From assembly GCA_052035405.1 (NCBI GenBank), contig JBPOHQ010000008.1:32893-96892 (forward strand): a DNA stretch of 64,000 bases, written 5' to 3'. The stretch comes from Candidatus Nomurabacteria bacterium. GTDB taxonomy: Bacteria; Patescibacteriota; Minisyncoccia; Phycocordibacterales; UBA9973. Under the pieces are notes generated by a model. That model ran no database searches and was not told the DNA's origin. It saw nothing but the letters and a program-made list of their open reading frames with translations. Both the position numbers and the translations under genes were made by a program. This document shows, piece by piece, positions 1 through 24,225 of the stretch (positions are counted from its first letter, which is position 1; every line of letters begins with the position of its first letter).

Positions 1-1078
1 TTATATGAAAATATGAACCATTATAATGATTTATGGAGTTTATTCCAACGGCACCATTGGTTCCTGAACCACCATGAACTTCTATATACTGTCCACCACC
101 TATATACATAACCACATGCCCCGCACTTGTATATTGGCTACTTTCTCCTTGTATCCAACCCAATAAATCACCAACTTGTAACGGAATACCATTTACTGAG
201 TTATTGATGACAGACCCACTTACCGTTTCAGATGATGGAAACATTGTTGCTGTGGTGTCCCCAGGTAAACTCATTCCAGCACAAGCGTAAACTTGTTTTA
301 CAAAAGAAGAACAATCTAAATATACTGTTGATGGTGATGTTCCGATAGTACCTCGCTGAGAATTACTATAAGTAACTTTACCATTAAAACTTTGGGCAAT
401 TGAAGCAATTTGGGATTCTCCCCCACTACCGGGACAATTAATACCCATAGCTGTAAGAGCAGAGGGTGATATAGCTGAAAAAGAACCAGCAGCACCTTCT
501 TGAGCTGGTCCTATAACTATTTTTGCTTTAGGTATATTTGGACAAAGATTTAAAAGTTGAGGGTTTATTGTATTTAATATTGCATAAGCTCCGAGTGCTA
601 GAATAAGTCCAAATACTGCATTTCTTGCTTGTTCTAGGCCTGCACCTTTAGCTGAAATACTCTCACTCGTCATGTACTGAATACCACCAATAACTATCAT
701 AATCATCGCTAATACAGCAGAGATTCCTATAAACAATTTTATCAAAACATTAAAATATTTACTTAACGCACAACCTTCTCCACCCACAGCATTAACATTG
801 TAGTTTTCTAAACCCGGCAAAGGTGCAAGCAGTGTATATGTTCCAGGGTTTGAATTACTACTTGTTGGAGAAAGAGTTTGAGTATTTGAACTTGTCCCTG
901 TGTCGTTTAAGACATCTGGATTTGGTGATGGGTCAACAATATTTCCATCTATAGTTAACCCTTCCCCTGTTTGTGCAAACACAAACGTTGAAGTAAAAAT
1001 AAATATAAAAAAACTAACTAGAAAAACAACAAAAAATTCCTTTATATATATTTTTTTTCTTGAATTAAAAATTAACAT
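1..1078 (-). CDS. Membrane-anchored cell-wall hydrolase with a C-terminal NlpC/P60-CHAP-like domain, partial (C-terminus runs off the window start); candidate T4SS-associated VirB1/CwlT-type lytic enzyme
   Basis: Not in the ORF track because no stop falls in the window. Hand translation of the minus strand gives MLIFNSRKKIYIKEFFVVFLVSFFIFIFTSTFVFAQT (signal/anchor), a TM stretch LIKLFIGISAVLAMIMIVIGGIQYM, then ...GIPLQVGDLLGWIQGESSQYTSAGHVVMYIGGGQYIEVHGG... typical of NlpC/P60-CHAP Cys-His peptidases; ATG at 1076-1078. Confidence 0.6.
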   Translation of the reverse strand, partial: MLIFNSRKKIYIKEFFVVFLVSFFIFIFTSTFVFAQTGEGLTIDGNIVDPSPNPDVLNDTGTSSNTQTLSPTSSNSNPGTYTLLAPLPGLENYNVNAVGGEGCALSKYFNVLIKLFIGISAVLAMIMIVIGGIQYMTSESISAKGAGLEQARNAVFGLILALGAYAILNTINPQLLNLCPNIPKAKIVIGPAQEGAAGSFSAISPSALTAMGINCPGSGGESQIASIAQSFNGKVTYSNSQRGTIGTSPSTVYLDCSSFVKQVYACAGMSLPGDTTATMFPSSETVSGSVINNSVNGIPLQVGDLLGWIQGESSQYTSAGHVVMYIGGGQYIEVHGGSGTNGAVGINSINHYNGSYFHI

Positions 1079-2051
1079 TAATTTCTTTGCTTGCTTCTTG
1101 AAAAAGAGTTTTTATATTACTAATAACTATTTTTATTTTAGCACTACCATTTTTACCTTCTTCTGGTTTAATACGTAATTCATTTTTTTGTAAGTTGTCT
1201 AACTGTCTTTCACCTAGTGTCCAAGTAATTTTAACCTTATCTGAAGACAGGTTTTTGGAAGAGAAAAAATAAGGTATAGCTATAAAATCTTCTCCGTTTT
1301 TATCTAAGGTAATACCATTTTTTACCTCTTGATTGAACATAATGCCAAAAACAGGATCTTTTTTATAAATCACAATTTTAGGAGTAATTCCAGAAACTGT
1401 TAAGCTATCTTTTGCCTGCAGGTTTCCAGATATATCAGACACCTTTACTGTTATTGTATCACTTGGGTCTAAATAACTATTTTTAAAACTAAAAGATGTT
1501 TTACCCCAACCAGATGAACTTGGCCTACCTTCTCCATTTTGTTCCCAGGTATAAGAAAGGTTGTTTGGATTAATTTTATTTAACTGTGTTCCAATAGTTG
1601 GTATTGCTACCATCTTAAAAGAACCTTCTTTACTAACTAGAGTTTTACCTTTGTAAAAAGGTGGCTTAAAAGAGTCCACTGCCTCCCAAAGAATATCAAC
1701 ATCTGAAGCGGTTAATAAAATCGATTTTCTAACACTTTGTCCATCAATAGTATCAACAACAACACTTAAATTTGTTTGTGTGCCAAATTCCCCAACATTA
1801 AATGAAAAGCTTTTTTTTCCAATACCGATAGATATAAGTTGATTGTTTACTAACCAAGAGATGTTTGATTTGTTTAAATCAAAAACGTAACTAGTTAACG
1901 TTGCTTTTACTTCTTCGTTTGGTTTTGGGTTTTCTGGAGATAATAGTAGTGTTACATCTGTGTTGTTTAATTGTGCAAAAGTATGTATTCCGGTAAAAGT
2001 ATAAATACATATAACACTCAGAATAAAAATTTTTAAAACACCAGTTTTCAT
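1065..2051 (-). CDS. Hypothetical secreted protein (N-terminal signal peptide) within the T4SS-like cluster
   Basis: ORF track; N-terminus MKTGVLKIFILSVICIYTFTGIHTFAQ is signal-peptide-like; no recognised catalytic motif. Confidence 0.5.
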   Translation of the reverse strand: MKTGVLKIFILSVICIYTFTGIHTFAQLNNTDVTLLLSPENPKPNEEVKATLTSYVFDLNKSNISWLVNNQLISIGIGKKSFSFNVGEFGTQTNLSVVVDTIDGQSVRKSILLTASDVDILWEAVDSFKPPFYKGKTLVSKEGSFKMVAIPTIGTQLNKINPNNLSYTWEQNGEGRPSSSGWGKTSFSFKNSYLDPSDTITVKVSDISGNLQAKDSLTVSGITPKIVIYKKDPVFGIMFNQEVKNGITLDKNGEDFIAIPYFFSSKNLSSDKVKITWTLGERQLDNLQKNELRIKPEEGKNGSAKIKIVISNIKTLFQEASKEINVNF

Positions 2052-2089
2052 GAGTTTATTATACCTAAAACAGACTAATTATCCAAAAC

Positions 2090-3952
2090 TTATCTAGCAA
2101 TAACTGTATTTGTTCCCGAAACTTCAGACTCTTCTAAGTCAGCTTTTGCCTTTTTAATGGACAGTATTTGAGAAGGATCTGAAGTTATAATTTGGTCTTC
2201 TGTGTAAGAAGAGACTATCTTAATAGCTACGTGTTTTAGTCCCGCAAAGAATATACCCTCACCTACTCCAGACTCCAAAAGGAGATATTTTTCTTCATCA
2301 GTGAGGTTAAAGGTTGATTGGAGTATTTCTATGGTACTTGGAGACTGTTTTAAGAGAAGTTGGATTGAAGAGTTGGTAACAATTGGTATTCCATAAGGAG
2401 ATTTCATGAAGTCAGCTGCGTCTTGAGTGATAGTAGCAAGACCTAAGTAATATTTTCTTCCTCTTTTTGCTAAAGAATACAAGAAAGAAGCAGTATCTTC
2501 TGATTTCATCATCCACCACGCCTCATCCACTACAAGAAGTCTCTTCTTTAAGTTTTTACGAATAGTATTCCAGATGTAGTGGGTAACGATATACATAGCA
2601 ATAGGCTTCAACTCGTCTTCCATATCTCGTACAGAGAAAACAACGAATTTTTTGTTGATATCTACATTACTTGGTTTATTGATAAATGTAGACCAAGAAC
2701 CTTTCGTGTATTTTACCAATCTTTGGACCACAGACTCACTTCCCTCCATTCCAGAAAGAACCATTTCAAAGTCTGACAAAAGCGGTGGCTCTATATTAGA
2801 AAAATCAGAATCAGGGGTGATGTCTTTTATGGCATATGTTTCAGATATTGCTCGGTCTACGATAGAATCTTCTTCTGGAGTAAGTCCACCCAACATGAGT
2901 CTGAAGAGACCTACGAGGTTTATAATATTACTTCTCAGCACATCCTCTGTGGTTTCATCTTCTCTTGGAATTGGTAAATCAAAAGGATTGATATGATGAT
3001 CAGAAGAAAGTGAGATATTGAAATATCTTCCACCTACTGTCTCAGCAAGGTACTCATATTCCCTTTCAGGGTCAATCACAATAACATCAATATCAAACAT
3101 GAGCGAACGAAGTATCTCGAGTTTTGTTGCGTAACTTTTTCCAGAACCAGATTTTGCAAAAGTGACAGAATTGTAGTTCTCAAGAGAGAATCTATCAAAT
3201 ACTACCAAACTGGAATTGTGTCTATTAATACCATACAATATTCCTTTATCTGAAGTTAGGTCAAAAGAAACAAAAGGAAAAATACTTGAAAGCGGCTCAG
3301 AATTTAACTTCTGATGTATGCTGATTAAATCGGTTCCAGTAGGAATAACACTTTTAAAACCTTCTTCTTGTTGAAAAAGTGCTGGTTTAATATATATTAA
3401 CTTTGACTCAAGAATGGATTTAATTTCATTCTCTACTTTAAAGAGCTCTAAGTCATTATCTGCATAGACAGTGATATAGACCCCAACATCAAAAAGCTTT
3501 TCTTGTGCTTGAATAAGACTATCACGAAGACCTTCGAGATCTTGATAGGCAGTATCGAGCATCGGGTCACGAACAACCCCTTTTGATTCTCTAATTCCGA
3601 TCTGGCTTTGTACTTCAGCAACTTTTTTCTGGAATTGTCGTAATGCAAGAGAGGTGTCTATCGGATGGATAAATATTGAAACATCAAAAACCTTATCGAG
3701 GTTAATAATAGGAGAAAACCAGTTATCTATAAGAAAACGAGGATAAGAAATTATAAAAAAAGTACGAGCAATTTTGTCCCCCAAGTCTAGGGACTTAGGG
3801 GCAATTTTTAAAGCAGATGGTGCGATAATATCTTGCAGTTCGAGGTTTGCAGATTCATATATTTCTTCAGGCATCACTGACAAAATAGAAGCACCCGCTT
3901 CTGTTTTTTTACCTTCTTCTTTTTTACCTAACAATTTATCGAGAATTCCCAT
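2090..3952 (-). CDS. VirB4/TrbE/ConE-family type IV secretion ATPase
   Basis: Walker A FAKSGSGKSYATK, DPEREYEYL, Walker-B-like LLVVDEAWWMM (DEAW motif typical of VirB4), IYSLAKRGRKYYLGLATITQ. Confidence 0.8.
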   Translation of the reverse strand: MGILDKLLGKKEEGKKTEAGASILSVMPEEIYESANLELQDIIAPSALKIAPKSLDLGDKIARTFFIISYPRFLIDNWFSPIINLDKVFDVSIFIHPIDTSLALRQFQKKVAEVQSQIGIRESKGVVRDPMLDTAYQDLEGLRDSLIQAQEKLFDVGVYITVYADNDLELFKVENEIKSILESKLIYIKPALFQQEEGFKSVIPTGTDLISIHQKLNSEPLSSIFPFVSFDLTSDKGILYGINRHNSSLVVFDRFSLENYNSVTFAKSGSGKSYATKLEILRSLMFDIDVIVIDPEREYEYLAETVGGRYFNISLSSDHHINPFDLPIPREDETTEDVLRSNIINLVGLFRLMLGGLTPEEDSIVDRAISETYAIKDITPDSDFSNIEPPLLSDFEMVLSGMEGSESVVQRLVKYTKGSWSTFINKPSNVDINKKFVVFSVRDMEDELKPIAMYIVTHYIWNTIRKNLKKRLLVVDEAWWMMKSEDTASFLYSLAKRGRKYYLGLATITQDAADFMKSPYGIPIVTNSSIQLLLKQSPSTIEILQSTFNLTDEEKYLLLESGVGEGIFFAGLKHVAIKIVSSYTEDQIITSDPSQILSIKKAKADLEESEVSGTNTVIAR

Positions 3953-4036
3953 GAATTATATTCTAGGTTCCATACTTAAAACACAAACAATATAAATTAT
4001 AATATATTTACAGAATATAACCTAGGCACTAATTAC

Positions 4037-4684
4037 CTAGCTTTGCTTTTCAAGCTCTATCTTACCCTCCAACTCTCCTGGGTTAAAAACTTTATAGAAT
4101 ACTTCTATGACTTCTTCTGTTCCTAGTTGTGCTGATTTTATACCGCAACGAGAAAGTCCTTGCTGAATTACACTTACGCGTTGTTCTAATTGAGAACGCT
4201 TTTCTTCAAAATCAAGCTCTGCTTCCAGTTTTAATTTCTTTTTGTCTTTTTTACCAAAGAACTTATCAAATAAATCAGACTCCGGTTTCAAGCTTGTTTG
4301 AGAATATGGGACTACAATAAAAAAACTTTTTGTCATAATACTTACTGTTTCTGTGAAATTCCTTATAAATTCTATATATTCTTTTGTTTGAAGTTTAAGG
4401 AGTGGCTCAGTTTGTAACTTCATTCTGTTTTCTAAAAGTAAAAGATATGGTCGTATGTCTAGCTTTCTAGATTGTATTGATATTTGTACAGCAAAGTCTA
4501 GGGTGTTTATAAAACTTTGGAATTGTAAAATTGTGGCTCGCTGTTCATCAGCAGATTTTAATGAAAGATTTATAGAATTAGCTAGTATAATCGCACGAAG
4601 TCCACCATCTTTAAGGACAACAACACCATCACGGACTTCCTTGATTGGTACAAACTCTTGAGTTGCTTTTGCATGTATTGCCAT
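4037..4684 (-). CDS. Hypothetical protein immediately upstream of virB4; possibly a separately encoded VirB4 N-terminal-domain-like module
   Basis: ORF track; EVRDGVVVLKDGGLRAIILANSINLSLKSADEQRATILQFQSFINTLDFAVQISIQSRKLD resembles the kdG..l..a.....g.d.e..s.ee pattern of VirB4 N-terminal domains (inference); no TM segment. Confidence 0.4.
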   Translation of the reverse strand: MAIHAKATQEFVPIKEVRDGVVVLKDGGLRAIILANSINLSLKSADEQRATILQFQSFINTLDFAVQISIQSRKLDIRPYLLLLENRMKLQTEPLLKLQTKEYIEFIRNFTETVSIMTKSFFIVVPYSQTSLKPESDLFDKFFGKKDKKKLKLEAELDFEEKRSQLEQRVSVIQQGLSRCGIKSAQLGTEEVIEVFYKVFNPGELEGKIELEKQS

Positions 4685-4687
4685 GTT

Positions 4688-5107
4688 TTAATTTTGTGTT
4701 TCTTTTTGAAGATCTAAAACGTCTAAACTCCAGGCTAAGTCTCGAAGTTTTCCACCGTTTAGTCTCGGGTTGTGAATTTCTTGGGTGCTTGTTTCTGCTT
4801 GTATTGATTGCTGTTTTTTAACTTTTTTAACTTTTCTTTTCCATATAAAAAGTTTATCTTGTAGGGCATATTTAATTCCTGCTTCAAGCATAAAAACAAA
4901 GGGCTTACTGTTTGGTTTATAGAAAGTAAGTGCTAGTGAAAAAGCTGCAACGGCAAGCATGGGAATGATTCCAAAGATTAAACCAAGAAGTCTATATAGT
5001 ACAAAACAAATTCCAGCTCCACCAGCTAAATAAACAAACTCACTAAAGGTGAATGGTCCAAATATTTTATCTTCAATATCTAAAAATTGTGGAACTTTAA
5101 ATTGCAT
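4688..5107 (-). CDS. VirB3/PrgI/ConD-like small two-TM membrane protein
   Basis: 139 aa; two hydrophobic helices (FVYLAGGAGICFVLYRLLGLIFGIIPMLAVAAFSLALTFY); position directly upstream of the virB4-region genes matches Gram-positive T4SS gene order. Confidence 0.5.
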   Translation of the reverse strand: MQFKVPQFLDIEDKIFGPFTFSEFVYLAGGAGICFVLYRLLGLIFGIIPMLAVAAFSLALTFYKPNSKPFVFMLEAGIKYALQDKLFIWKRKVKKVKKQQSIQAETSTQEIHNPRLNGGKLRDLAWSLDVLDLQKETQN

Positions 5108-5170
5108 ATTGTAAACGAATCTTAAACAAGACTGCTATACATATATTGTAATAGTAAATCAATAAAAAGA

Positions 5171-5887
5171 CTACTCGTTTGGGTCTAGTCTGTATGGATC
5201 TACTTTTTTTGTTTCTGTTTTTTGACTCAATTCGTCTGTATTTTGCTTTGTTATGTTGTTCAAAGAATACTCTGTTTGGGTTTTTGTCATTTTAAATGGT
5301 TCAGCTAATTTCTGTGCAGATATTGAATTTGTTGTTTTTGGTATTGTTGTTGGTACGGGGTTTTCTACTTTCACTAGCATGTCTTCCCTGTTTTCTAAGG
5401 GTTCTTCTTTTTTTACATTTGATTCTTTTTTGTCTGATACAACTTCAATACCAGCATTTGTTAAGACTTCTTTTTCCTCTTGTTTTATATTATTAATAGT
5501 AAAATCTCTTTTTGGAACTACAGTCTCTATTTCGATAGATGAAACGTTTTTCTTTTTACTAGAGATACTAATTAAAGAATCTTTTATTTTCTTAAAAATA
5601 AGTTCGTTTAGTTCATTCACCAGGATTTCTGACTGAGATTTATGTATACCCATCCTCATCTCTAGTTCTTGTTGGTAGTTGAGAGGATTTACTAACCCAC
5701 AAAGCAAGAGTTCAGTCTCTAGTTCTAGAGCTGAAAGCTGCTCTAAGTTGTAACCTTTCTTATCTTTCATTGATAGGATCACTCCTCTCCAGTTCACAGA
5801 ACTAATAGCTTCCCTAGTTTCTTTCGGGAGTTTTTCTCGAGCTTTTTCAATTTTTACTTGTAGTAGGTCTATATTTTCGTCTATCAT
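5171..5887 (-). CDS. Hypothetical protein, paralog of the adjacent 165-aa ORF
   Basis: N-terminus KLPKETREAISSVNW...LETELLLCGLVNPLNY parallels MLPKETQEVLSIFPW...TETALLLTGITDSEDY of the 5913..6410 ORF. Confidence 0.45.
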   Translation of the reverse strand: MIDENIDLLQVKIEKAREKLPKETREAISSVNWRGVILSMKDKKGYNLEQLSALELETELLLCGLVNPLNYQQELEMRMGIHKSQSEILVNELNELIFKKIKDSLISISSKKKNVSSIEIETVVPKRDFTINNIKQEEKEVLTNAGIEVVSDKKESNVKKEEPLENREDMLVKVENPVPTTIPKTTNSISAQKLAEPFKMTKTQTEYSLNNITKQNTDELSQKTETKKVDPYRLDPNE

Positions 5888-5912
5888 ATGTTTATTTTAA
5901 CACAGCTTCGTT

Positions 5913-6410
5913 TTATATTTTGAACTGACTAACCAAATTTGTTTTTATAGGAGAGGTGGGGGTTTTTGGTGCAAAACTTTTATCAATTTTTTTTCTTAAA
6001 CTATCGGTAAGATAAATATAATTTCCCCCGGATAAGATAAAACTAATATTCTGATCTATGTCAGTGTTTCTTTGATTTACACCCTGTTTAATCTTTGAAG
6101 TTATCTGTTCGGCTATAGGTTCTAATATTTTGGTCGTTATGACAATTAATATTTTTTCAGTTTCATTTTTAGTTAGACCAACCTCATTCAATAGATTATA
6201 TTTATAATCTTCTGAATCTGTAATTCCAGTAAGCAAAAGAGCTGTTTCTGTTTGAAGTCTAATAATTTCATCTTCAGTAAGAATGAATTCATTACCTATT
6301 TCAGCTAATTTTTCAAACCAAGGAAAAATACTTAAGACTTCTTGAGTTTCCTTTGGAAGCATTAATAATTCTTCTTGTATAGCTTTTTGTAATTTGTTTT
6401 TTGTATCCAT
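5913..6410 (-). CDS. Hypothetical protein, paralog of the adjacent 238-aa ORF
   Basis: Shared LPKET.E...ET.LLL.G motif with the 5171..5887 ORF. Confidence 0.45.
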   Translation of the reverse strand: MDTKNKLQKAIQEELLMLPKETQEVLSIFPWFEKLAEIGNEFILTEDEIIRLQTETALLLTGITDSEDYKYNLLNEVGLTKNETEKILIVITTKILEPIAEQITSKIKQGVNQRNTDIDQNISFILSGGNYIYLTDSLRKKIDKSFAPKTPTSPIKTNLVSQFKI

Positions 6411-6421
6411 ATTAATTTATC

Positions 6422-8746
6422 TTAATGTCCACCTCCTGCCGTAGGTGCTACAGACATTCTTATTTTTCTAGCGGCTTCATCTCCTCCACGAACACTGTAT
6501 TGACCTAGACCTGTTATTTGATCTGTAATATTACTAAATGTACTATTTATATATTTAGCAAACTTATCTTTTCTAGTCTTATTTAGCGATTTAATTTTAC
6601 TTTTTGCTTCTTTGATGTCTTTTGTTTCTATCTCATAGATACTTTTACCACCCATTTTTGAACCTGGATCCGTTTTAGCGTTAGCATCATTTGAATATTT
6701 CTTGTTTATTCTTTCTATAATTAATTCTCCTTTTGGACTGTAGTCAAAATACTCGACATCAATATTCTTTCCTTTTTTAAGAGCATCCATTTCCTGCTTA
6801 AATGCAGATATTTGTGAATCAAAATGGGAAATCTTACTTTTTGAATCTAAGGTGCCATTGTCTGCGTTTTTTGCGTCTTGCAAATTTTTTCTTGCCGCTT
6901 CTATTTGTTTTTCTATTCTTTCTACTTCACCACCAAATTTATTATTCCAAGCATCTTGTACTTCTTCCGCTTCGTGTAGTTTTCTTTTTACTGGTTCGTC
7001 TTCACCTACTTCAAGTTCTTTTGCTCTCTTTAATCTCTTGGCTACCTTTTCTTCTCTCATTTGTGTAAAGCCTCCTTTTCTAGCTTCTCCAAGGTTTGCT
7101 CCAGTAACACCTGCTAAGTTTTTACCGGCAATTTTAAGGGAGCGAATGTCTAGGTTTGATGATCCAAGCTTCATCATAGATTTCTGGAATACGTCACCAA
7201 AAGCATTTTTAGCGGCAAAGTTTTTAACTGCACTATTATTAGCAAGTGCAGCCCCTGCTCTACCGAGAGTAGCACGTCCTGCTACAGCTGCCGCACCAAG
7301 CACCGCTCCCCCCGCAACACCTCCAAGTAATTTCGTTCCAGAAAGTATGGCTTGACCCATTTCACCAGAGTATTTTACTGCAAGCTCTTTTGCTTTCATG
7401 AGAAGTATATATATAAGCATGAATGGTATAATATTTTTCATTAAACCATCAAGCCAGTCTGTTGAGTCGGTTACATCATAGGGAATTTCTTTTAAGAATC
7501 CTCCAAACAAGATAACTACATACAAGAAAAATACAAATATGGGTGCCATGAAGGCGTGTTGGAACAGATCCCCCCAGAATTTTTTGTGTCCAAATCCAGG
7601 TATTTCAAAGGGTACTGTATATGAAGCAAAAGCGAGAGGTGAGAATATCATAAGTATCCAAAGAGAAGCAACTCTAGCAACAAAGAGTATTGCAACAGAA
7701 AGAAACATAAATATCATATAACCCATTATTAGTATGGAAATAATCATGAGAAGGAAAAATTCTCCCAAGTTGCTTGAAATAGGTTGCACCATAACTTCTT
7801 GTGGGTCAAATTGTCTTACTAGTCCAACCGTTATAGACCTCTCACCATTTTCATTTTCTGGCAAAGGTTCACCATTTTTATTCTCAGGGGTTATATTGTT
7901 GTAAAAAACTTTAGTTAATATATTTGATGCGTCTATTACTATTTTTGTTACAAAAAGACTAAAATTTATAATGAGTGCTATGACAACAATCGTTCCAATG
8001 AGTTTTTTATTGTTACCAACGTTGAGGCTAAGTATAGTTTTTATGGCTACATACAATAATGCAACTATAAAAAATATATTTGCAATATCTCTTACAACAC
8101 CCCAAGCTTTTTCTGTAAAACCACTGGTATATGCCGTACTACTTATAGAATAAAATATAAAAAAATCTAAAACACTTGCTGCTAGTCTTGTAAGTGCTGC
8201 AAACGGACGCCATACGAGATTATAAATCATGGATACAATACAATTTGTAAACCATGTACGTGGGTCTGCACTACAACCTATGTCGTCATCATCAGAACTG
8301 ATGCTGGATTGAGAGGCTCCAGGAACACCTGTGCCTGCTTGGATGGATGGGTTGAAATTTATTTGTGTCTGTGCCGTAGTTCCAAGCCAAGTACTGGATG
8401 GAGTAAAGTTACCAGTCCAGGTTCCTTGGGTAATAACTCCATTTACGACAGTTGCATTCCATGTACCTACAACATCATTTGATGTTCCATTCCAGACGGT
8501 AATATCTCCAGAATATGTCCCGTCAGTATAATTAGTGGTCGTACCCGTAAAGGTACCATCAGGGTTAAGTGTTCCACTTCCGTAAATACCATCAAAACGA
8601 GTTGCTGCTGTTTGAGCTAAAGCCTGTTTTAGGTTTGATTCTAATACAATCTTATTATTTTTTATTTCAAAACTAGGAGTTAAAGGCAACAGAAAAATAC
8701 CTAATGTAACAATCAGTATTAAAATTTTTGATGAAATTTTATTCAT
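6422..8746 (-). CDS. VirB6/TrbL-like polytopic membrane protein with an N-terminal secreted domain and a long C-terminal charged coiled-coil tail
   Basis: Signal peptide MNKISSKILILIVTLGIFLLPL, about 6 hydrophobic helices in the middle (FFIVALLYVAIKTIL, IGTIVVIALIINFSLFVTKIVI, FFLLMIISILIMGYMIFMFLSVAILFV...), K/E-rich C-terminus; the architecture matches Gram-positive VirB6 analogues. Confidence 0.5.
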   Translation of the reverse strand: MNKISSKILILIVTLGIFLLPLTPSFEIKNNKIVLESNLKQALAQTAATRFDGIYGSGTLNPDGTFTGTTTNYTDGTYSGDITVWNGTSNDVVGTWNATVVNGVITQGTWTGNFTPSSTWLGTTAQTQINFNPSIQAGTGVPGASQSSISSDDDDIGCSADPRTWFTNCIVSMIYNLVWRPFAALTRLAASVLDFFIFYSISSTAYTSGFTEKAWGVVRDIANIFFIVALLYVAIKTILSLNVGNNKKLIGTIVVIALIINFSLFVTKIVIDASNILTKVFYNNITPENKNGEPLPENENGERSITVGLVRQFDPQEVMVQPISSNLGEFFLLMIISILIMGYMIFMFLSVAILFVARVASLWILMIFSPLAFASYTVPFEIPGFGHKKFWGDLFQHAFMAPIFVFFLYVVILFGGFLKEIPYDVTDSTDWLDGLMKNIIPFMLIYILLMKAKELAVKYSGEMGQAILSGTKLLGGVAGGAVLGAAAVAGRATLGRAGAALANNSAVKNFAAKNAFGDVFQKSMMKLGSSNLDIRSLKIAGKNLAGVTGANLGEARKGGFTQMREEKVAKRLKRAKELEVGEDEPVKRKLHEAEEVQDAWNNKFGGEVERIEKQIEAARKNLQDAKNADNGTLDSKSKISHFDSQISAFKQEMDALKKGKNIDVEYFDYSPKGELIIERINKKYSNDANAKTDPGSKMGGKSIYEIETKDIKEAKSKIKSLNKTRKDKFAKYINSTFSNITDQITGLGQYSVRGGDEAARKIRMSVAPTAGGGH

Positions 8747-8837
8747 GTGTACACAGAAAACTTCTGTACTTTTCTCTGCTGTTTTCTTATTTGTTTATTA
8801 TAGCAAAACTAAATAAACTTACCTCTTTCTGAGTATC

Positions 8838-11243
8838 TTATCTTTTGTTGAAATAATATTCGTACGGATTTTTTGTCTTGAACGGTGAATTTATTCTTCG
8901 GGCATCGATAACTTTATTCTTGTAGTACTCGTATACGGTTAATTTATTTCCAGAGAGCCACAATTGATACGCAGATACATCAGGACGACTTACACGAATC
9001 TCTCTTAGGTCCGGACCTACGTATCCAAATGCTTTACCGAATACGTGTGCAAGGTCCCATGCGAATTGTTGCAAGTTGTCCCCCTCGGTGTAGCCATATT
9101 TTCTTTGGAATATTGGACTCTTTTTAATTCTTCTTGCGAAGACAGTCTCTACTCCTTCGTGATATCTGACAATATCATCATTGTCTGGTTCAAGAGTTTG
9201 TCCAATGATTGGTAAGTGTGGGCCAACAGGACCAACTGGTGTTGTATCTTGCCCATCCGGTATTCCATCATTATCATCATCAGTGTCTAAGTTGTTAGGT
9301 ATTCCATCTCCATCTGCATCATCATCGTCTACATTTGGTATACCGTCACCATCAAGATCTGTGTCTAAGGTGTTTGGCGTACCTCCTCCATCATAGTCTG
9401 TTGGAGTCCCAATTCCAGTAGGACTTCCGTCTAATAAATCAGGTATTCCATCATTGTCATCATCAGTATCAGTAGTATTAGGAATTCCATCTCCGTCAGT
9501 ATCATTGTCTAGGATGTTAGGAATTCCATCCCCGTCCATATCGGAATCTAGGATATTCGGTATTCCTCCACCGTCATAGTCAAAGGGTGTTCCTGTTGCC
9601 GTAGGACTACCATCAAGGAGATCCGGTATTCCATCATTGTCATCATCAGTATCAGTAGTATTAGGAATTCCATCTCCGTCAGTATCATTGTCTAGGATGT
9701 TAGGAATTCCATCCCCGTCTATATCAGAGTCAACAGTATTTAAAAAGCCATCCCCGTCAAAATCTGTAGGGTTCCCTCCATTAGTATTTCCGTCGCCATT
9801 TGGATTTGTTCCGTTTCCATTTCCATTTCCACTATCACTTCCTGTGCCATCATCTCCAACTCCATCGTCTCCAGGATTTCCATCGTCTCCGTTTCCTGTA
9901 TCGGTATACCCACCTGTTTCATTTGGTCCGTTTCCATTATTGTTTCCGCCAGTATTGTTACCACCAGTATTTCCTCCTCCTGGGTCATTTGGTCCACCTG
10001 GATCTATTGCTGGATCATTTCCATAATCAATGTTGTTTCCATTACCGTCGTTTCCTACACCGTTGCCAGGATTATATGGAGTTCCGATATAATCAACAGC
10101 ATCAGTCAGTCTAGTTTTAAAATCCAAAGTAGCACCATAAAATGTTTGTGTTGGACTACTACTGCCTGTTGTGTTTATTGTTTCAGCTACTGCACGGACA
10201 TTGTAAGGAGTGTTTTTTGTTAAACCAGAAAGCTTAAAGCTCATGGTTCCATAACTTTTTGTTTCATGAGTCACTTCTCCAACTTTAATCCAATTTAACT
10301 CGCTCTCTTTTTTATATTCAAAAAATGTTTTTACTTTTCTACTGGAACCATAAGAACCCTTTAAAAAAGCAGATTTTGAAGTTATTTCTGAAGGAAAATA
10401 AGTTATCACAGAAGTATGAGGACAAGATTGACATGGGTCTGTGTGAAAAGTAACGACGCCACCATACTTTATTTCAGTTGGTTTGCGTGCATCATTTGAA
10501 ACAACAGCACAGTATGAATACAGTGTGTCTGGTTCTAAGTTCGTTACATTAGCAAAAAAATTTCCTCCACCAGAAACTTTTCCATAAGCATCTGGTACTG
10601 TTGAAATTATTCCTATCATCTGAGAACCAAATATTTCATTGCAGAAAATAGGTGGTTTGTCTACTCTAGACAATCTAAAGTATCCATAGGCCAAGGATCC
10701 AGTACCACCGACTGAACCCTTTAGTACAACATCAGTATCAGTAAGACCTGTTACTGTGTGGGTTGTTACACCGCTTATTTGATTTCCACTACCGCTACCA
10801 GTGCTTCCTCCACCAGAAGGTGGAGTGACAAGAGTTTTAAAGTTTTTTACACTACCATAATATACTTCACTTCCACCAAAATAAAGTTGATTTTGGTCTG
10901 TTGTTGCTACCGCACAGTAATAATAAGTTGTATCTTGTTGTAAGTTACCTATTTGCTGATTAAGAGTATTTAGTGTTCCTGTTGTTGATGTGTTAAAAGT
11001 AATTGTAGAACTAGAGTAAAAGTTTGTCATATTATAACAACTAGTACTAGCTACTGTTGTATATCTGAAATTAGCATATACAGGAAAATTGTTATAGTTT
11101 GTGACTGTTCCAGAAAGTGTAGCCTGTGTGTCAGTTATGTTTGATGCTGAGTTGGTGTTTACTATCATATACCCAAAAGTTATTGCTGGTACAAGCAATA
11201 ACAGTAGCATGAGTATTTTTTTGTATATTTTTTTACCGTACAC
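8838..11243 (-). CDS. Large secreted or surface repeat protein with thrombospondin-type-3-like calcium-binding repeats (DTDGDGIPN / DDDNDGIPD)
   Basis: N-terminal anchor MYGKKIYKKILMLLLLLVPAITFG; a Gly/Asn-rich tract; repeated D-x-D-x-D-G-IP motifs; near-identical internal duplication. Confidence 0.6.
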   Translation of the reverse strand: MYGKKIYKKILMLLLLLVPAITFGYMIVNTNSASNITDTQATLSGTVTNYNNFPVYANFRYTTVASTSCYNMTNFYSSSTITFNTSTTGTLNTLNQQIGNLQQDTTYYYCAVATTDQNQLYFGGSEVYYGSVKNFKTLVTPPSGGGSTGSGSGNQISGVTTHTVTGLTDTDVVLKGSVGGTGSLAYGYFRLSRVDKPPIFCNEIFGSQMIGIISTVPDAYGKVSGGGNFFANVTNLEPDTLYSYCAVVSNDARKPTEIKYGGVVTFHTDPCQSCPHTSVITYFPSEITSKSAFLKGSYGSSRKVKTFFEYKKESELNWIKVGEVTHETKSYGTMSFKLSGLTKNTPYNVRAVAETINTTGSSSPTQTFYGATLDFKTRLTDAVDYIGTPYNPGNGVGNDGNGNNIDYGNDPAIDPGGPNDPGGGNTGGNNTGGNNNGNGPNETGGYTDTGNGDDGNPGDDGVGDDGTGSDSGNGNGNGTNPNGDGNTNGGNPTDFDGDGFLNTVDSDIDGDGIPNILDNDTDGDGIPNTTDTDDDNDGIPDLLDGSPTATGTPFDYDGGGIPNILDSDMDGDGIPNILDNDTDGDGIPNTTDTDDDNDGIPDLLDGSPTGIGTPTDYDGGGTPNTLDTDLDGDGIPNVDDDDADGDGIPNNLDTDDDNDGIPDGQDTTPVGPVGPHLPIIGQTLEPDNDDIVRYHEGVETVFARRIKKSPIFQRKYGYTEGDNLQQFAWDLAHVFGKAFGYVGPDLREIRVSRPDVSAYQLWLSGNKLTVYEYYKNKVIDARRINSPFKTKNPYEYYFNKR
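9421..9780. repeat. Tandem direct DNA repeat of about 180 bp (two copies, roughly 100 bp near-identical) encoding the DNDTDGDGIPNTTDTDDDNDGIPDLLDGSPT block
   Basis: 9421-9536 and 9601-9716 are almost identical by eye (ggaattccatctccgtcagtatcattgtctaggatgttaggaattccatccccgtc...). Confidence 0.7.
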
Positions 11244-11291
11244 TTTTTATTTTTTCTGTCTTATTTTGGTACTGTATATTTTAACACTTCT

Positions 11292-13874
11292 TTAATAAAT
11301 ACCGAACATTTTTTCAAACTTACGAGTCACAACTCCGCAAACATTTGCGTTGTATGGGCCAACTGGGTAAGACTCCAGTCCTCCAAGATCGGTAGTATTT
11401 CCAGTATCTTTGTCTATATTTGGCAGAGATATTTCCACCCATCCTACAAATTCAGGGCAAGTTGTAGGAGTTACTACCCAGTTATTGACGTACACACTAC
11501 CGTATAAGAATCCTTCGTTTGTGCTCCATGATTGAACTGCATTTTGACTCCATGGAGTTGTGGTGTTTGGATTTAATGGAGCTGTACTTTGTCCTGGTGC
11601 ACCGTATAGGTAATACACAGGAGTACCATAAGGTTGTCTTCTGTAGAATTTACTATAAACAGTATTGTTACTTGAATAAATATTTTTTACTTCTTCTTCA
11701 CACCCACCTGGGCCTTTCAACAGATCATCCCAGACGTACTTTTTTTGACTTTCAAGTTCTTTTAGTAAAGAGTCTGCTTTTGCTACATCATCTCCCGTAA
11801 CCATATCTTTGGTTAATCTTCCAAAGAAAGAAATCCAAGGTCTTAGATCATCCTCGTTTGCGTTTGCTCCACCGAGTGCCTCAATTGCTTCTTTTATTTG
11901 GACAAGTCTGACTACAACACTTTTCTTGAAGGTAATTTCTTCAAAATTATCTTCACCTATTTGTTCGTATCCAACTATTTTATTGTATTCATTGCGTGCT
12001 TCAGTTGTTACCAACGGCATAGGTGCTAAAGAATTTGCCCCACTGTTGTACATTTTGTAAATCTGTTTTCTGTATGTTTCAAAAGTGTTTTCTATAACAT
12101 TTCTTATTCCATCTTCATCTAGAACTTGGTCTTGTTCATTGTTATCACCGGCACCAATAGCACCATAAATGTGTACATCGTAGAGTTTACTAAGGTACGT
12201 TGCAACCTGCCTTTTTACTTGTCTTTCTTTTGAGTTTTCAAGTATTGCTGTAGCTATACCAGACACTATACCCGTAGGGTCAAATGCAGGGAGAAGATCA
12301 AGAAGGGGTGTTTCAAGTCCTACAGGGCTGTATTTTATGGTGTCATAGAAATTATCAACACTAGCTGCACTTTCCCAATCTGGACGTGGTCCAGGAATAC
12401 AGTAATCTAATTGTCTGATTGATTTTACTAACTCTGGAATTACTTCATTTTGTTTTTCTAATTTTTCTATGTAAATTCTTTGTTCATCAATGATTGCCTG
12501 ATTGAGATCTGTTCTGATGTTAAAATCAGGATGTTGTTCAAGCCAATCACTACCAAGTTGCCATGATGGAAAATCTCTTTCTGTTTGTGGATCTGAGTAA
12601 CCACTTGCAGAAGCCGCATCGTTATCTAACACAAAAGCACCACCAGAACCTTCGTTTGAGAAATCAGCAAAACCTTTATTTGTAATATCGCTTGACCATT
12701 TATTTAATAGAGCATCAAGGATTGCCCCTATTGCATCATTTAAATCATCTGCATTTAGAAGATTATTATCAGGATAATTTATGGCTTTAGTTGCAGCCTG
12801 AGCCACCATTTGTCCTGGGGTAACATATTCCCATCTTTTACATATACCGATAATGTTTCCTGAGGAGTCTCTTTCTCCATCTATTAGGGCTTTTTGGTGC
12901 ATTTCTTTGGTTATACCTTCTGGTTCTGCACAACGTTCATCTCCAAGATATCCATTTGCTTGGTCGAGAGCTTTTTGAATTTTGGTAGCAGGTGAAGTTT
13001 GAGTACCTTCAAGTCTGAAGCGTAATTCATTTGACGCCATTAATTGGAAACCTAAAGGATTGTTTGCTGGTACCGAGGTTAAAGATCTCCAAGCATTCCA
13101 ACCACCTTTTGAAAAGTCTGAACTAAAAGTAATAGCATTATATTGTGGTGTTGTTTCAGCGATTAATTCATTTAAAGAATATTGAGCATTGTCTGCAAAT
13201 TTTCTATTGTAAGCGTTTACTTGATTTCTGAGCCAATTTTTTGCATAAGGATATTTTACTGGATCGTCTATTTCGAGTCCAAAAGCTCGTATTTCATTTT
13301 TTGCGATATCTTCAAAGAATTTTCCAGGGTTCTGTAAGAAAAGAGGCTTACCTTCAAAACCATTATTTATCCATGCCACAGTACTTAAAGTTATTTTTTG
13401 AAGCATGAGCTTTATTACCATTCTACCAATACTTTTCAGACAAGTGTCGTTTCTTGCTATGTCATCAACACCCTTTTGGGTTGCGGTGGCCTTATCAAGT
13501 GTTTTTTTTACGTCATTTTTTAACTCTTTTCCAACATCAACGCCAATAGTTTGAGAGTCAGAAACTGCATCAGAGGCTGTTTGTGCAAAACTACTAAGTG
13601 TACCTTTTACACCAAGAACCTCTCCGGCTTTTCCTAAATTTACTCCACCAAAAAGACTTTTTACCGCTCCAGTTATTTTACCCTTACATAACGGTAGTTG
13701 TTTTATTACAGGACCTACATTTTTTAGGTAACTACCTACACCATAAGAACCCCCACTGCTATATCCACCAGCACTCTGGGCATTTACATTTTCTACAAAT
13801 ATAAAATAGGGCGTAGACAAAAAGCTTACAATAAGAAGTGAAGTTATAAAATTTTTAAAATATTTTTTCCCCAC
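11292..13874 (-). CDS. Large (860 aa) secreted hypothetical protein
   Basis: Signal peptide MGKKYFKNFITSLLIVSFLSTPYFIFVENVNAQS; no recognised catalytic motif. Confidence 0.5.
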   Translation of the reverse strand: MGKKYFKNFITSLLIVSFLSTPYFIFVENVNAQSAGGYSSGGSYGVGSYLKNVGPVIKQLPLCKGKITGAVKSLFGGVNLGKAGEVLGVKGTLSSFAQTASDAVSDSQTIGVDVGKELKNDVKKTLDKATATQKGVDDIARNDTCLKSIGRMVIKLMLQKITLSTVAWINNGFEGKPLFLQNPGKFFEDIAKNEIRAFGLEIDDPVKYPYAKNWLRNQVNAYNRKFADNAQYSLNELIAETTPQYNAITFSSDFSKGGWNAWRSLTSVPANNPLGFQLMASNELRFRLEGTQTSPATKIQKALDQANGYLGDERCAEPEGITKEMHQKALIDGERDSSGNIIGICKRWEYVTPGQMVAQAATKAINYPDNNLLNADDLNDAIGAILDALLNKWSSDITNKGFADFSNEGSGGAFVLDNDAASASGYSDPQTERDFPSWQLGSDWLEQHPDFNIRTDLNQAIIDEQRIYIEKLEKQNEVIPELVKSIRQLDYCIPGPRPDWESAASVDNFYDTIKYSPVGLETPLLDLLPAFDPTGIVSGIATAILENSKERQVKRQVATYLSKLYDVHIYGAIGAGDNNEQDQVLDEDGIRNVIENTFETYRKQIYKMYNSGANSLAPMPLVTTEARNEYNKIVGYEQIGEDNFEEITFKKSVVVRLVQIKEAIEALGGANANEDDLRPWISFFGRLTKDMVTGDDVAKADSLLKELESQKKYVWDDLLKGPGGCEEEVKNIYSSNNTVYSKFYRRQPYGTPVYYLYGAPGQSTAPLNPNTTTPWSQNAVQSWSTNEGFLYGSVYVNNWVVTPTTCPEFVGWVEISLPNIDKDTGNTTDLGGLESYPVGPYNANVCGVVTRKFEKMFGIY

Positions 13875-13955
13875 GTTTATTTTTATCTAGAAAGATAGAT
13901 AGTATTATTATACTCTGTTTTTACTTTAAATAAAGTAAAAATGTTTAAAAACAGA

Positions 13956-14894
13956 CTATTCTTGAAGTGAACCTTCTAATTCTTCTACTGCCGTTATTAA
14001 ATCATTACTGTATTTTTCATACTGAGAAAGTCCAGAGAGTCCAACGAGTGGGTCAGTGATGATTTTTGTCATGTTTAATACACTTATACCTGTATTGTTT
14101 GCACCATTTGCTATTGCAAGATGTATGTCTAATAAACCTGTTGGAACAGAAACTTTCATGACAGATTTACTAAAATCTTGATATGCTTGAGCTATTTTGA
14201 TTAGTTCTTGGTTTTGTCCTGTGTTTGTGCTTGTTGAAGAATATATAGATAAATCACTGTTTACTATATCCAACTCATCCCCTAATCCTTCTTTTTCGTA
14301 TTTTTGAAACAGGTTTTTCAATTCTCTGTAATATTCAACCCTATTGAATTCAGTGTCTTCTGTGTTTATGGTCGTTTCTGTATCTTTATATTTGTCTATA
14401 AGCGTAGGGTTTGCAATTCTTTGACCTAAAGCATCAGAAAATGCATTGATCGACTGGTTATCAACTTCTCCTGAGGCTTTCAAAGCTGTATAAGCACTGA
14501 AAAATTCTCTAGCAAATCTTTCTGTTTCTGTAAGTGTTAAATCATTTTTTTCTTGCTCTATGTCCAACTCTTTCTTTTTGTTTTTTACATATATGTTGTC
14601 TGGTATTCCGTTAAAAGTAACTTTCTTATTTTTATCTGTTCCCCAAAGTGCTTCTTCCCAGTCTAAAAGACCATCTCCATCAGTGTCTGTGTTTATAAGT
14701 CCTATAATTGTTTGATTTTCTACTTCTAGTCCATCTACCCCCTTTTTAGAATTAAAGCTTTCTTTTTTTGAAAAAATAAAAAATATTAAAAATAACACAC
14801 AAAATACCAACGCCCAAACGCCTATCATTTTTGTAAATTCTTTACTCGGTAAATATTTTCTGTATTTTTCTGGTATTTTAAATGAGTATTTCAT
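13956..14894 (-). CDS. Membrane-anchored hypothetical protein with a DTDGDGLLDWEE calcium-binding-like motif
   Basis: N-terminal TM VWALVFCVLFLIFFIF; DTDGDGLLDWEEALWGTD motif; start overlaps the stop of the upstream ORF (TAATG). Confidence 0.5.
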   Translation of the reverse strand: MKYSFKIPEKYRKYLPSKEFTKMIGVWALVFCVLFLIFFIFSKKESFNSKKGVDGLEVENQTIIGLINTDTDGDGLLDWEEALWGTDKNKKVTFNGIPDNIYVKNKKKELDIEQEKNDLTLTETERFAREFFSAYTALKASGEVDNQSINAFSDALGQRIANPTLIDKYKDTETTINTEDTEFNRVEYYRELKNLFQKYEKEGLGDELDIVNSDLSIYSSTSTNTGQNQELIKIAQAYQDFSKSVMKVSVPTGLLDIHLAIANGANNTGISVLNMTKIITDPLVGLSGLSQYEKYSNDLITAVEELEGSLQE

Positions 14895-15280
14895 TATTTT
14901 TTTGATGTACCCCAGATGGTTATGGTATCTAGGTTAACTGTTTCTTCTGATGGTGGTTCTATTCTTGTGCAGCTAACGGTTGTTTTACCCTGATATTTTC
15001 CTATAATTTTTTGACCACTATGTGCCGTTGTTCTCGTTTTAGACATTGTCAGTGCTGGTATGAAATATTCTTTAGGCATTCCCACTTTTTGGGGTTTTAT
15101 TTGTATTGTTGTTCCTACCACTATACAGGTATATCCTTGTTGTTCCAGTCTTTCTATGCTTTGTGCCTTTGGTTTTATTATTGTTCCACCAAAAACATTA
15201 CCAAAACCGGCTTGAGCAATATCCCAAAAAAGTAAAGAAATAAAAAGTATTAAAAAAGCATAGACCGTATTTTTCTGCAT
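14894..15280 (-). CDS. Small secreted hypothetical protein; first gene of the minus-strand cluster
   Basis: Signal peptide MQKNTVYAFLILFISLLFWDIAQA; stop overlaps the downstream ATG. Confidence 0.45.
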   Translation of the reverse strand: MQKNTVYAFLILFISLLFWDIAQAGFGNVFGGTIIKPKAQSIERLEQQGYTCIVVGTTIQIKPQKVGMPKEYFIPALTMSKTRTTAHSGQKIIGKYQGKTTVSCTRIEPPSEETVNLDTITIWGTSKK

Positions 15281-15322
15281 TTATATATTATATCAATACT
15301 TGGTTAAAAGAAAAAGGAAAGT

Positions 15323-16108
15323 TTATTTTACAAGAGAAAGTAGTTTAATCCATTCTTCTAGACGTATATCCTCAGCTCGAGTGTTTTTTGTGAGTCCTAC
15401 CTTTTCTAAAATTTCTAACCAGTTGTTCTTTTTATATACACCCTTTAGGTTGCCAATCAGAACTTTTCTTTTATGTGCAAAACCAGCATGAATAATTCCC
15501 CAGAATTTTTCTTCTTTTATACTGTTATCAGTAAATAAATTTCTTGAGATTGAGTGTATTTTAATGACAGCAGAATCCACTTTCGGTGCTGGAGAAAAAT
15601 ATCTTGCGGGTACCTTCATTATCATCTTTGGTGTACCATAAGCTTTAACTGATACAGATAAAATACTTTCTTTTTTATCTTGTGCGACAATTCTTTTTGC
15701 TACTTCATGCTGCACCATAAGCACCATGAGCTCTGGCTGGTATATTTCTGTTAGAAATTTTTTTAAAATTGCACCGGTTATGTTGTATGGAATGTTTGCG
15801 ATTACCTTATATTTTTTTTCTTTTACGGAAAATAGGAGTATATCCTCTTCTAGTAATAGTAATTTCTTACTCATTATTTCTTCTTTAAATTTTTCTTGTA
15901 GAAATGCGAAAAGCTCTCGATCTTTTTCTATGGCAATGACGTGATCAGAGTTCTCCAGTAATCTTTCCGTAAGTGCTCCTTTTCCAGGACCTATTTCTAG
16001 GATTACATCTTCTTTTTTTATTTCTCCAGCTTTTATTATTTCCCTGAGTGCAAGTTCTGATTTCAAGAAATTTTGGCCGAGAGATTTTTTTGCTTTATGT
16101 ACTTTCAT
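15323..16108 (-). CDS. rsmA: 16S rRNA (adenine1518-N6/adenine1519-N6)-dimethyltransferase
   Basis: SLGQNFL, EIGPGKGALT and NIPYNI motifs. Confidence 0.9.
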   Translation of the reverse strand: MKVHKAKKSLGQNFLKSELALREIIKAGEIKKEDVILEIGPGKGALTERLLENSDHVIAIEKDRELFAFLQEKFKEEIMSKKLLLLEEDILLFSVKEKKYKVIANIPYNITGAILKKFLTEIYQPELMVLMVQHEVAKRIVAQDKKESILSVSVKAYGTPKMIMKVPARYFSPAPKVDSAVIKIHSISRNLFTDNSIKEEKFWGIIHAGFAHKRKVLIGNLKGVYKKNNWLEILEKVGLTKNTRAEDIRLEEWIKLLSLVK

Positions 16109-16219
16109 ATTATTTGAGTAAAGTTATAAAATTTTTGAATGGTCTGGCCGAGCCCGAAGCAGAATGCTAGGGCGAGGAGATCTGAGGACCTGAAAAAATT
16201 TTGATAACTTTAGAAATGA

Positions 16220-18250: not shown

Positions 18251-18577
18251 TTATTTTATTTTACTCAATACTTCTCTTGCATCTTTTTTAAAACTTTCTC
18301 CTTCTTCGGCTACAATAGATAGAAAATTTGGTACTTTTGCAAAAAAGAATTCCATCAAATCTTCTGCAGGTACGTTCTTTTCAAGAAGTGCATCGTATTC
18401 AGCAAGGTCACCTTCTGACATTTTTGGTAGAATTCTTATAAGTACTGATTGAAAGATAAGTTTACCAATTTTATTGATAGATTCTTCTTGTTGTTCTTCT
18501 GGTAATTTGTCTATCTCAAACATCGTGATAATGTTTTCCCTTATTTCACTTTGAGCTTTTTTTGTATTTGTATCCAT
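18251..18577 (-). CDS. Hypothetical small protein
   Basis: ORF track only. Confidence 0.35.
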   Translation of the reverse strand: MDTNTKKAQSEIRENIITMFEIDKLPEEQQEESINKIGKLIFQSVLIRILPKMSEGDLAEYDALLEKNVPAEDLMEFFFAKVPNFLSIVAEEGESFKKDAREVLSKIK

Positions 18578-24154: not shown

Positions 24155-24225
24155 CGGGCTGTAGTATACCGGTAGTACAAGCGCTTTGGGAGCGTTTAGA
24201 CTGGGTTCGATTCCCAGCAGCCCGA
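24155..24225 (+). tRNA. tRNA-Pro (anticodon UGG); CCA not encoded
   Basis: Cloverleaf by hand: acceptor cgggctg/cagcccg, anticodon loop tttggga, T-arm ctggg-ttcgatt-cccag. Confidence 0.85.

Follow-up and report, generated by a model that had tools for sequence, protein, structure and literature searches.

The first 15,280 nucleotides of the DNA analysed here (64,000 nucleotides of contig JBPOHQ010000008.1 from a Candidatus Nomurabacteria bacterium; this whole stretch is called the window) carry a packed block of 12 minus-strand open reading frames (ORFs) that probably encodes a chromosomal type IV secretion system (T4SS) without a relaxase, of the Patescibacteria kind and in its Paceibacteria form, which would serve contact-dependent exchange with a host cell and not conjugation. 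The system has already been published, and the first-pass annotation of the window was essentially right. It had proposed one minus-strand T4SS-like block in an organism of the candidate phyla radiation, used for host interaction rather than as an integrative and conjugative element (ICE); every ORF that it named was found in place, and the comparisons given below, together with earlier work (PMC12102498, PMC10633639), argue for such a non-conjugative machine.

Core components and chromosomal setting

Intergenic gaps in the block measure -14 to 91 nucleotides (nt), and its genes are listed in Table 1 together with the gene that borders them upstream. Helices were assigned by a simple hydropathy scan, which placed N-terminal signal or anchor helices in the proteins of 128, 312, 860, 801, 774, 328 and 361 amino acids (aa), in agreement with the earlier description of the 860-, 801-, 328- and 312-aa products as large signal-peptide proteins. 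Promoter and terminator scans over positions 1-16500 gave counts equal to those obtained with shuffled sequence and therefore no operon boundaries were drawn.

Table 1. Genes of the T4SS block and its upstream neighbour, in the direction of transcription (window coordinates).
Feature	Position	Strand	Characteristics
ksgA/rsmA-like rRNA methyltransferase (flank, outside the system)	15323..16108	-	translation reads as RsmA/KsgA-type
128-aa small secreted protein, first gene of the block	14894..15280	-	signal-like helix aa 6-24
312-aa bitopic membrane protein, conserved member	13956..14894	-	transmembrane helix aa 23-41
860-aa secreted, cysteine-rich, mostly helical protein	11292..13874	-	conserved orphan component
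801-aa secreted adhesin-like protein	8838..11243	-	thrombospondin type-3 repeats; fn3-like modules; Gly/Asn/Asp-rich region
774-aa extended VirB6-like polytopic membrane protein	6422..8746	-	five transmembrane helices aa 217-450
165-aa soluble protein	5913..6410	-	no transmembrane helix, no family match
238-aa soluble protein, conserved member	5171..5887	-	no transmembrane helix, no family match
139-aa PrgI family (VirB3-like) two-helix membrane protein	4688..5107	-	PF12666
215-aa TrsD-like protein, stand-alone homologue of the VirB4 N-terminal domain	4037..4684	-	VirB4-model matches
620-aa VirB4 ATPase, motor	2090..3952	-	NF045971, PF19044, Walker motifs
328-aa secreted protein, directly after virB4	1065..2051	-	signal-like N-terminus; about three repeated beta-rich modules
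Pilin-hydrolase fusion protein, 361 aa in full	1..1078	-	signal peptide, linker, VirB2-like module, NlpC/P60

The VirB4-family ATPase of the first reading was recovered with 366.7 bits on the CD1110-family model NF045971 (NCBI cut-off 325), with a match to PF19044 (E 1.7e-22) and with 259.8 bits on the Mbov_0397 model, and its Walker A (AKSGSGKS) and Walker B (LLVVDE) motifs are both intact. Equally, the two-helix protein described as VirB3/PrgI-like scored 34.3 bits on PF12666 (gathering score 27). Only 3 nt from the PrgI gene lies the 215-aa gene, which had been left uninterpreted and which is now read as TrsD-like: its product matches positions 102-246 of NF045975 (E 2.3e-10), aligns to positions 2-125 of NF045971 and matches the TrsD/TraD model NF041427 (E 2.7e-6, below the 200-bit cut-off of that model), and a gene of identical length in L001, a public contig that is 96-97% identical to the window and encodes an identical VirB4, carries a precomputed match to the TraC-like family PF26593. 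Because the 215-aa protein matches N-terminal parts of VirB4 as well as TrsD/TraD, VirB4 is split here, as in pGO1-type systems.

The 774-aa protein had been called VirB6/TrbL-like, and the first half of this name was retained whereas the second was not. The protein combines a signal helix with a beta-sandwich on the outside, a bundle of membrane helices and a long C-terminal tail of hydrophilic character. When 35 orthologues were tested, none matched the Pfam TrbL/VirB6 family PF04610 at E<=1, and a sequence-profile search of the PDB did not reach VirB6 chains and returned nothing relevant. Fifteen of the 35 matched NF045848 (MMCAP2_0566 conjugal transfer protein; best E 6.3e-9), five matched NF045889 (Mbov_0396 ICE transmembrane protein) and two matched the Firmicutes mobilome membrane family CD3337/EF1877. 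An AlphaFold2 model of residues 1-480 (pLDDT 76) gave TrwI/VirB6 chains of the R388 T4SS as its top four fold matches in the PDB (probability 0.63-1.00, three of them >=0.95; E 0.044-0.30), the best being 8rt9_F (E 0.044, probability 1.00, target-normalised template-modelling score 0.52). Because of the matches to families from Mollicutes ICEs and of the fold matches of this model, the protein was accepted, with modest confidence, as VirB6-like, although not filed in Pfam TrbL; it is the weakest assignment of the cluster. A precomputed PF19590 tag on one VirB6-like homologue (P0223) was not reproduced and was set aside.

Contig L001 was used to read past the window start. There the cluster continues for about 1.35 kb with the gene of a 442-aa membrane-anchored protein, which is followed by jag, yidC, yidD, rnpA and rpmH on the opposite strand and then by dnaA and dnaN, and DnaA-box-like sites cluster around dnaA (L001 12855-14207). 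This is the place where, according to the first-pass annotation, a relaxase, VirD4 and oriT would have marked an ordinary ICE; the housekeeping genes were found there instead. For comparison, 80 species-representative Paceibacteria loci were collected in which VirB4 is 76-91% identical, and their gene order is almost invariant: uvrD, ksgA, the 312- and 860-aa genes, a variable gene, the VirB6-like gene, the 165-aa gene (where present) and the 238-aa gene, PrgI, TrsD, VirB4, the 328-aa gene, the pilin fusion and the 442-aa gene, followed by jag, yidC and dnaA. The TrsD-like gene adjoins virB4 in 80 of 80 loci and PrgI was found in 78, the full-length 328-aa protein in 76 (about 33% identity), the VirB6-like protein in 65, the 238-aa gene between the VirB6-like and PrgI genes in 47 and the 165-aa gene in 29. 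Counted among the loci whose flank is long enough to reach that far, ksgA lies directly upstream of the cluster in 36, forming a conserved border, and the 312-aa gene directly follows ksgA in 39 (about 28% identity). Median identities of cytoplasmic and membrane parts are 81% (VirB4), 64% (TrsD) and 51% (PrgI), whereas that of every exported protein is 28-42%. Since this order recurs in 80 species with VirB4 76-91% identical, the cluster is, to judge from locus comparison, vertically inherited core chromosomal DNA and not an ICE. VirB4 homologues that are 87-95% identical occur in at least 120 protein clusters named Paceibacterota or Nomurabacteria, and the titles of the 120 best listed homologues and of the 80 loci are overwhelmingly those of Patescibacteria, Paceibacterota or Nomurabacteria (one homologue is labelled Burkholderiales), which places the organism, as proposed, in the candidate phyla radiation and makes it Paceibacteria-type by its VirB4 relatives.

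The first reading had seen no relaxase or VirD4 gene in the window, and a Pfam scan of window ORFs (all from 300 aa upwards and several shorter ones) likewise revealed none, nor did L001 past the window start; neither a relaxase nor a coupling protein was found among ten unmatched ORFs sampled inside related clusters, which turned out to be adhesin-like proteins, unrecognized or a stray AAA_14/DUF4143 ATPase. Such an ATPase gene is inserted between syntenic T4SS genes at L028 1821-2948 and L039 6029-7138 and may be a selfish or mobile gene. Scanned window ORFs outside the cluster have housekeeping, restriction-modification or type IV pilus functions, and no element borders or integrase were found at the cluster, whose housekeeping flanks are fixed in the 80 species.

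These features agree with the Patescibacteria T4SS of Quinonero-Coronel et al. (2025; PMC12102498), the accessible part of which nests the Patescibacteria VirB4 clade in MPF-FATA, reports abundant adjacent TrsD homologues together with PrgI, VirB6 and VirB2-like pilins near virB4, links VirB1-type hydrolases to virB4, particularly in Paceibacteria, and gives dnaA, dnaN, ksgA, rnpA and rpmH as typical virB4 neighbours, with relaxases nearly absent. The window locus is an instance of that system and nothing essential differs; the fusion of pilin and hydrolase in one polypeptide, the conserved orphans of 312, 860, 328 and 442 aa and the variable adhesin slot are not described in that part of the paper. 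The suggested synteny with Saccharibacteria was likewise borne out. In Southlakia epibionticum ML1, the genes SEML1_0006-0019 are essential for epibiotic growth according to transposon insertion sequencing (Wang et al., 2023; PMC10633639), essentiality having been shown for Southlakia only, and they share with the window the core order of VirB6-like protein, PrgI, a 293-aa protein and VirB4, with wall-active proteins downstream. The product in the TrsD position, SEML1_0009, is named a TrsD homologue in PMC12102498. Like the window locus, that of Southlakia has no recognizable relaxase or coupling protein in the cluster and possesses VirB2-like pilins of family PF18895, and it is found where the chromosome numbering begins. 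The differences are a second VirB6-like gene, a protein of NTF2-like (VirB8-like) type and six short pilins arrayed on the opposite strand, whereas the window shows one VirB6-like gene, no recognized NTF2-like protein and a single enzyme-fused pilin module. The conjugative MPF-FATA systems of Firmicutes and Mollicutes (CTn2/CD1110, Trs of pGO1, Prg of pCF10 and the Mycoplasma ICE proteins Mbov_0395-0397 and MMCAP2_0565-0566) contain counterparts of VirB4, TrsD, PrgI and the polytopic and pilin-like proteins. However, they are carried by mobile elements with relaxase, type IV coupling protein and integrase and move DNA, whereas the window locus is fixed in the chromosome next to oriC and none of these three was found there.

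A pilin module fused to exchangeable wall enzymes

The gene at the window start had been read as a membrane-anchored hydrolase of NlpC/P60-CHAP type in the CwlT/VirB1 role. As the window start removes its last two codons and the stop, its full length was read from L001. The NlpC/P60 part stood (PF00877 E 1e-9, with the catalytic residues Cys255 and His321 present), no CHAP match was found in this hydrolase, and the plain anchor gave way to a VirB2-like two-helix pilin module at about aa 75-180, which matches the TrbC/VirB2 family PF04956 (E 2.7e-4) and the Mbov_0395 pilin-like conjugal transfer protein NF045849 (E 0.0014). Among the 74 syntenic proteins used for family tests of this slot, 59 matched the T4SS_pilin family PF18895 at E<=1e-3, several above its gathering score. 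The module is kept at the same position in 72 loci, is far better conserved than the domains flanking it and displays the nearly invariant motif Y.LLAPLP ... GGI(E/Q)YMTSE ... LNTINP.L. The C-terminal domain varies: a recognizable peptidoglycan enzyme domain was present in about 30 of the 74 proteins (NlpC/P60 in 13, VanY or M15 in about 10, YkuD in 4, SLT types in 3 and 3D in 1) and the remaining C-termini are unrecognized or coiled-coil, while some of the proteins also carry N-terminal IPT/Ig domains. From these comparisons, we conclude that the pilin module is fused in one polypeptide to interchangeable wall-enzyme domains.

The 106-aa module was searched against 1.84 billion representative proteins and 12,628 relatives were obtained at E<=1e-3. 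Within the best 150 of these, the median length is 434 aa, only 7 are below 200 aa and in most the module lies inside a chain of 300-700 aa; among the best 114, T4SS_pilin is matched by 109 and a peptidoglycan enzyme domain is present in about half. In one locus (L003) the 442-aa gene stands between two pilin-fusion paralogues, at 12871-14616 and 16024-17868. Between about residue 135 and the module's end their identity is 100%, and beyond that point the two are unrelated, one tail being NlpC/P60 and the other unrecognized and lysozyme-like, so that the pair looks like a recent duplication in which the C-terminal domain would have been replaced exactly at the module border. No paper describing a pilin-hydrolase fusion was found in the literature searched. 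The adjacent Pfam numbers of PF18895 and PF18896 (SLT_3) suggest that curators may have seen the fusion.

CwlT, PrgK and TraG of pIP501 are T4SS-operon proteins in which a wall-cutting domain (NlpC/P60, CHAP or SLT) is tethered to the membrane. They have a single N-terminal anchor, whereas the tether in the window protein is a conserved VirB2-type two-helix module that follows a cleavable signal peptide, and the window-type fusions, unlike those proteins, exchange the enzyme between species (NlpC/P60, VanY/M15, YkuD, SLT, 3D). It is nevertheless quite possible, although we lean away from it, that the pilin-like hairpin is a mere anchor for a VirB1-type hydrolase and that the machine forms no pilus and works as a Gram-positive-style channel with adhesins. 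Hydrolases of Gram-positive T4SSs are membrane-anchored (PMC12102498), a single module per locus was found in 69 of 73 loci, with only one in the window and no array, and a module internal to 300-700-aa proteins, as in its best 150 relatives, would make for bulky fibre subunits. On the other hand, the families to which the module is similar are those of VirB2/TrbC pilins and not of generic anchors, it is much better conserved than its flanks, many of the syntenic proteins contain coiled coils or nothing recognizable in place of an enzyme, and essential arrays of VirB2-like pilins are known in Saccharibacteria. Because the pilin-like, VirB6-like and VirB4 proteins all match families from Mollicutes ICEs, the pilin-like component may be ancestral to this T4SS branch and not borrowed from diderms.

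A bolder reading, which we regard as rather unlikely in its full form, is that the module is a true polymerising pilin and its fixed slot a cassette site at which enzyme and N-terminal Ig-like domains are swapped, so that the T4SS would assemble a fibre that is studded with enzyme, fitted to the peptidoglycan chemistry of a given host and able to drill a feeding conduit through the host wall.

Orphan, variable and neighbouring genes

The 312-aa protein is predicted to have a cytoplasmic N-terminus, one transmembrane helix and an outside domain with a calcium-binding-like motif (DTDxDG-x-DWEE); in its family W79 is invariant and D78 nearly so. It matched no Pfam family, and in a PDB profile search its sole match was the calcium-motif stretch of a biofilm surface protein, which was of no use. 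The exported 860-aa protein has six invariant cysteines and a C-terminal half that was modelled with confidence as helical; no fold relative of it was found in the PDB. A repeated W..NG/GKKSF-type motif characterizes the alignment consensus of the 328-aa family, for which a PDB sequence-profile search gave no relative, and the same type of search with the 442-aa family returned nothing useful. The 128-aa gene overlaps the following gene by 1 nt, its product matched no Pfam family, and a BLAST homologue was detected in just 2 of the 80 related loci, which makes it uncertain whether it belongs to the T4SS cluster. An LPKET-containing N-terminal motif is shared by the 165- and 238-aa proteins, which may be paralogues; the match (E 0.002) extends over just 25 aa and the support is weak.

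The thrombospondin-type repeats reported for the 801-aa protein were recovered above threshold (PF02412 TSP_3, 29.4 bits vs 25), together with weak matches to fn3 and Pur_ac_phosph_N, and its gene contains a 183-bp tandem duplication at 9382-9725. A homologue occurs in only about 9 of the 80 loci, and in other species the same slot is occupied by CARDB, F5/8-type-C or unrecognized proteins; the 801-aa protein fills a hypervariable adhesin slot and is not a core component.

Just upstream of uvrD and on the same strand lie genes for a 729-aa protein without a Pfam family (18588-20777, -) and a 108-aa protein (18251-18577, -). The T4SS block, ksgA, uvrD and these two further genes (window 1-20777) are transcribed towards rpmH and dnaA; if oriC lies at dnaA, this segment would be head-on to replication, which bears on a published gene-dosage idea. 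Local GC skew simply follows the gene strand and was not used to place the origin. Wall enzymes are also encoded outside the cluster, namely a 361-aa LysM-LysM-Peptidase_M23 protein (21140-22225, +) and a 221-aa Peptidase_M23 protein (39450-40115, +). Four tRNA genes lie within 2.2 kb at 24155-26360, where gene orientation turns from minus to plus. A C-5 cytosine DNA methylase (350 aa) and an R.HinP1I-family endonuclease (259 aa) are encoded at 41050-42871 (+) with an 11-nt overlap. A type IV pilus locus at 56075-61085 (+) encodes a PilB-type T2SSE ATPase (581 aa), a PilC-type T2SSF protein (405 aa), a 322-aa InlB B-repeat-like protein and a 165-aa pseudopilin with an N-methyl motif, and is preceded at 50557-55993 by genes for a 1269-aa protein with a collagen-repeat match and a 524-aa protein. 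Type IV pilus and T4SS are both essential in Southlakia; here both lie within 64 kb.

Proposed function and alternative readings

In the favoured explanation, VirB4, with TrsD, would dock on PrgI and the VirB6-like channel and would supply the power to pull the pilin-module protein out of the membrane; this protein might then assemble into a short fibre or conduit spanning the wall. The attached enzyme would cut peptidoglycan locally and so open the epibiont's own wall and possibly that of the host, the extracellular part would be built by the exported orphans (counted as conserved are those of 312, 860, 328 and 442 aa and perhaps the 128-aa one), and the protein of the variable slot would supply host-specific adhesion. 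We lean towards export or assembly of surface structures and proteins over DNA transfer. Reviews call the function of the Patescibacteria T4SS "completely unknown", the suggested roles being delivery of effectors, import of DNA or other molecules from the host, or a pilus conduit.

Several points weigh against this explanation. No VirB8/NTF2-like component was identified, the 312-aa bitopic protein being a candidate by topology only. The VirB6-like protein does not match Pfam TrbL, and in absolute terms its structural similarity to VirB6 is low (E 0.044, query-normalised template-modelling score 0.34). The score of the window protein on PF18895, 25.3 bits, is just under the gathering score of 26.6, and the module may only anchor the enzyme rather than polymerise. 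According to PMC12102498, VirD4-like genes lie far from virB4 in most Patescibacteria, and this genome could encode a relaxase or coupling protein at another site. The proposed function is read from homology and context only, and this Paceibacteria lineage may not consist of epibionts.

After the anchor reading discussed above, the alternative that survives best is a machine for import of DNA or nucleotides, like archaeal Ced or ComB of H. pylori, that feeds a cell unable to make nucleotides. Ced is a relaxase-less chromosomal machine of VirB4, VirB6-like protein and VirB2-like pilin in a cell without an outer membrane. The same parts are present in the window (a chromosomal VirB4 with VirB6-like and VirB2-like pilin proteins, neither relaxase nor coupling protein having been found), which also shows a weak local match to CedB (NF041017, E 8.5e-9), and the import idea has been raised before (PMC11665869), with Ced as a precedent (PMC9905601). 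However, the CedB match spans about 70 residues and reaches 34.6 bits against a cut-off of 700, so that the sequence relation is remote; Ced lacks the fused wall hydrolase and the orphan proteins of Paceibacteria, and no DNA-binding or nuclease component was recognized in the cluster by family scans. In Southlakia the ComEC competence route is dispensable, which shows that transformation is not the essential function but does not argue against uptake through the T4SS. Import of this kind is possible, although decidedly improbable.

It is very unlikely that the block is an ordinary ICE, or the remnant of one, with relaxase, coupling protein and integrase outside the examined region. In favour of this reading, the VirB4 family (CD1110) is named for conjugative transposons, Mollicutes ICE families are matched by the VirB6-like and pilin-like proteins, and genes for a tyrosine recombinase and a UvrD/PcrA helicase are present, at 30376-31311 and two genes upstream of the cluster, respectively. 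Against it, housekeeping genes stand in fixed order on both flanks in 80 species, no relaxase or VirD4 was found in the scanned window ORFs, L001 or the ten sampled ORFs, a VirB4 that stays 76-91% identical across species whose exported proteins diverge behaves like a core gene and not like a mobile one, the only recombinase is about 15 kb off behind tRNA and housekeeping genes, with a SAM-like domain and catalytic layout that are also those of XerC/D, and only 103 of 3,035 genomes contained a relaxase according to PMC12102498. The PcrA/UvrD protein, considered as a conjugation helicase, was set aside as a housekeeping gene product with no relaxase. As a feature of the window in its own right, the minus-strand gene at 30376-31311 encodes a tyrosine recombinase with an N-terminal SAM-like domain and XerC/D-type layout and was not treated as an element integrase.

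With the favoured explanation of a relaxase-less T4SS for exchange with host cells, the locus gives a clean Paceibacteria reference map of core versus variable genes, and what it adds to published accounts is the swappable pilin-enzyme fusion, the hypervariable adhesin slot and the 860-aa orphan without a fold relative. According to reviews, no T4SS other than that of Patescibacteria is known to be needed for the growth of its owner, and its substrate has yet to be named; for that reason, well-annotated examples are of some value. If the cassette-fibre reading were true, adaptation to host range would have left its signature in the fast divergence of the exported proteins and in the hypervariable adhesin slot nearby, and if the attached enzyme acts on the host wall, the machine would be linked to host range and feeding mode. 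The single pilin-module protein, with a wall enzyme that differs between species, offers a testable handle, which is a modest addition and not a new kind of system.

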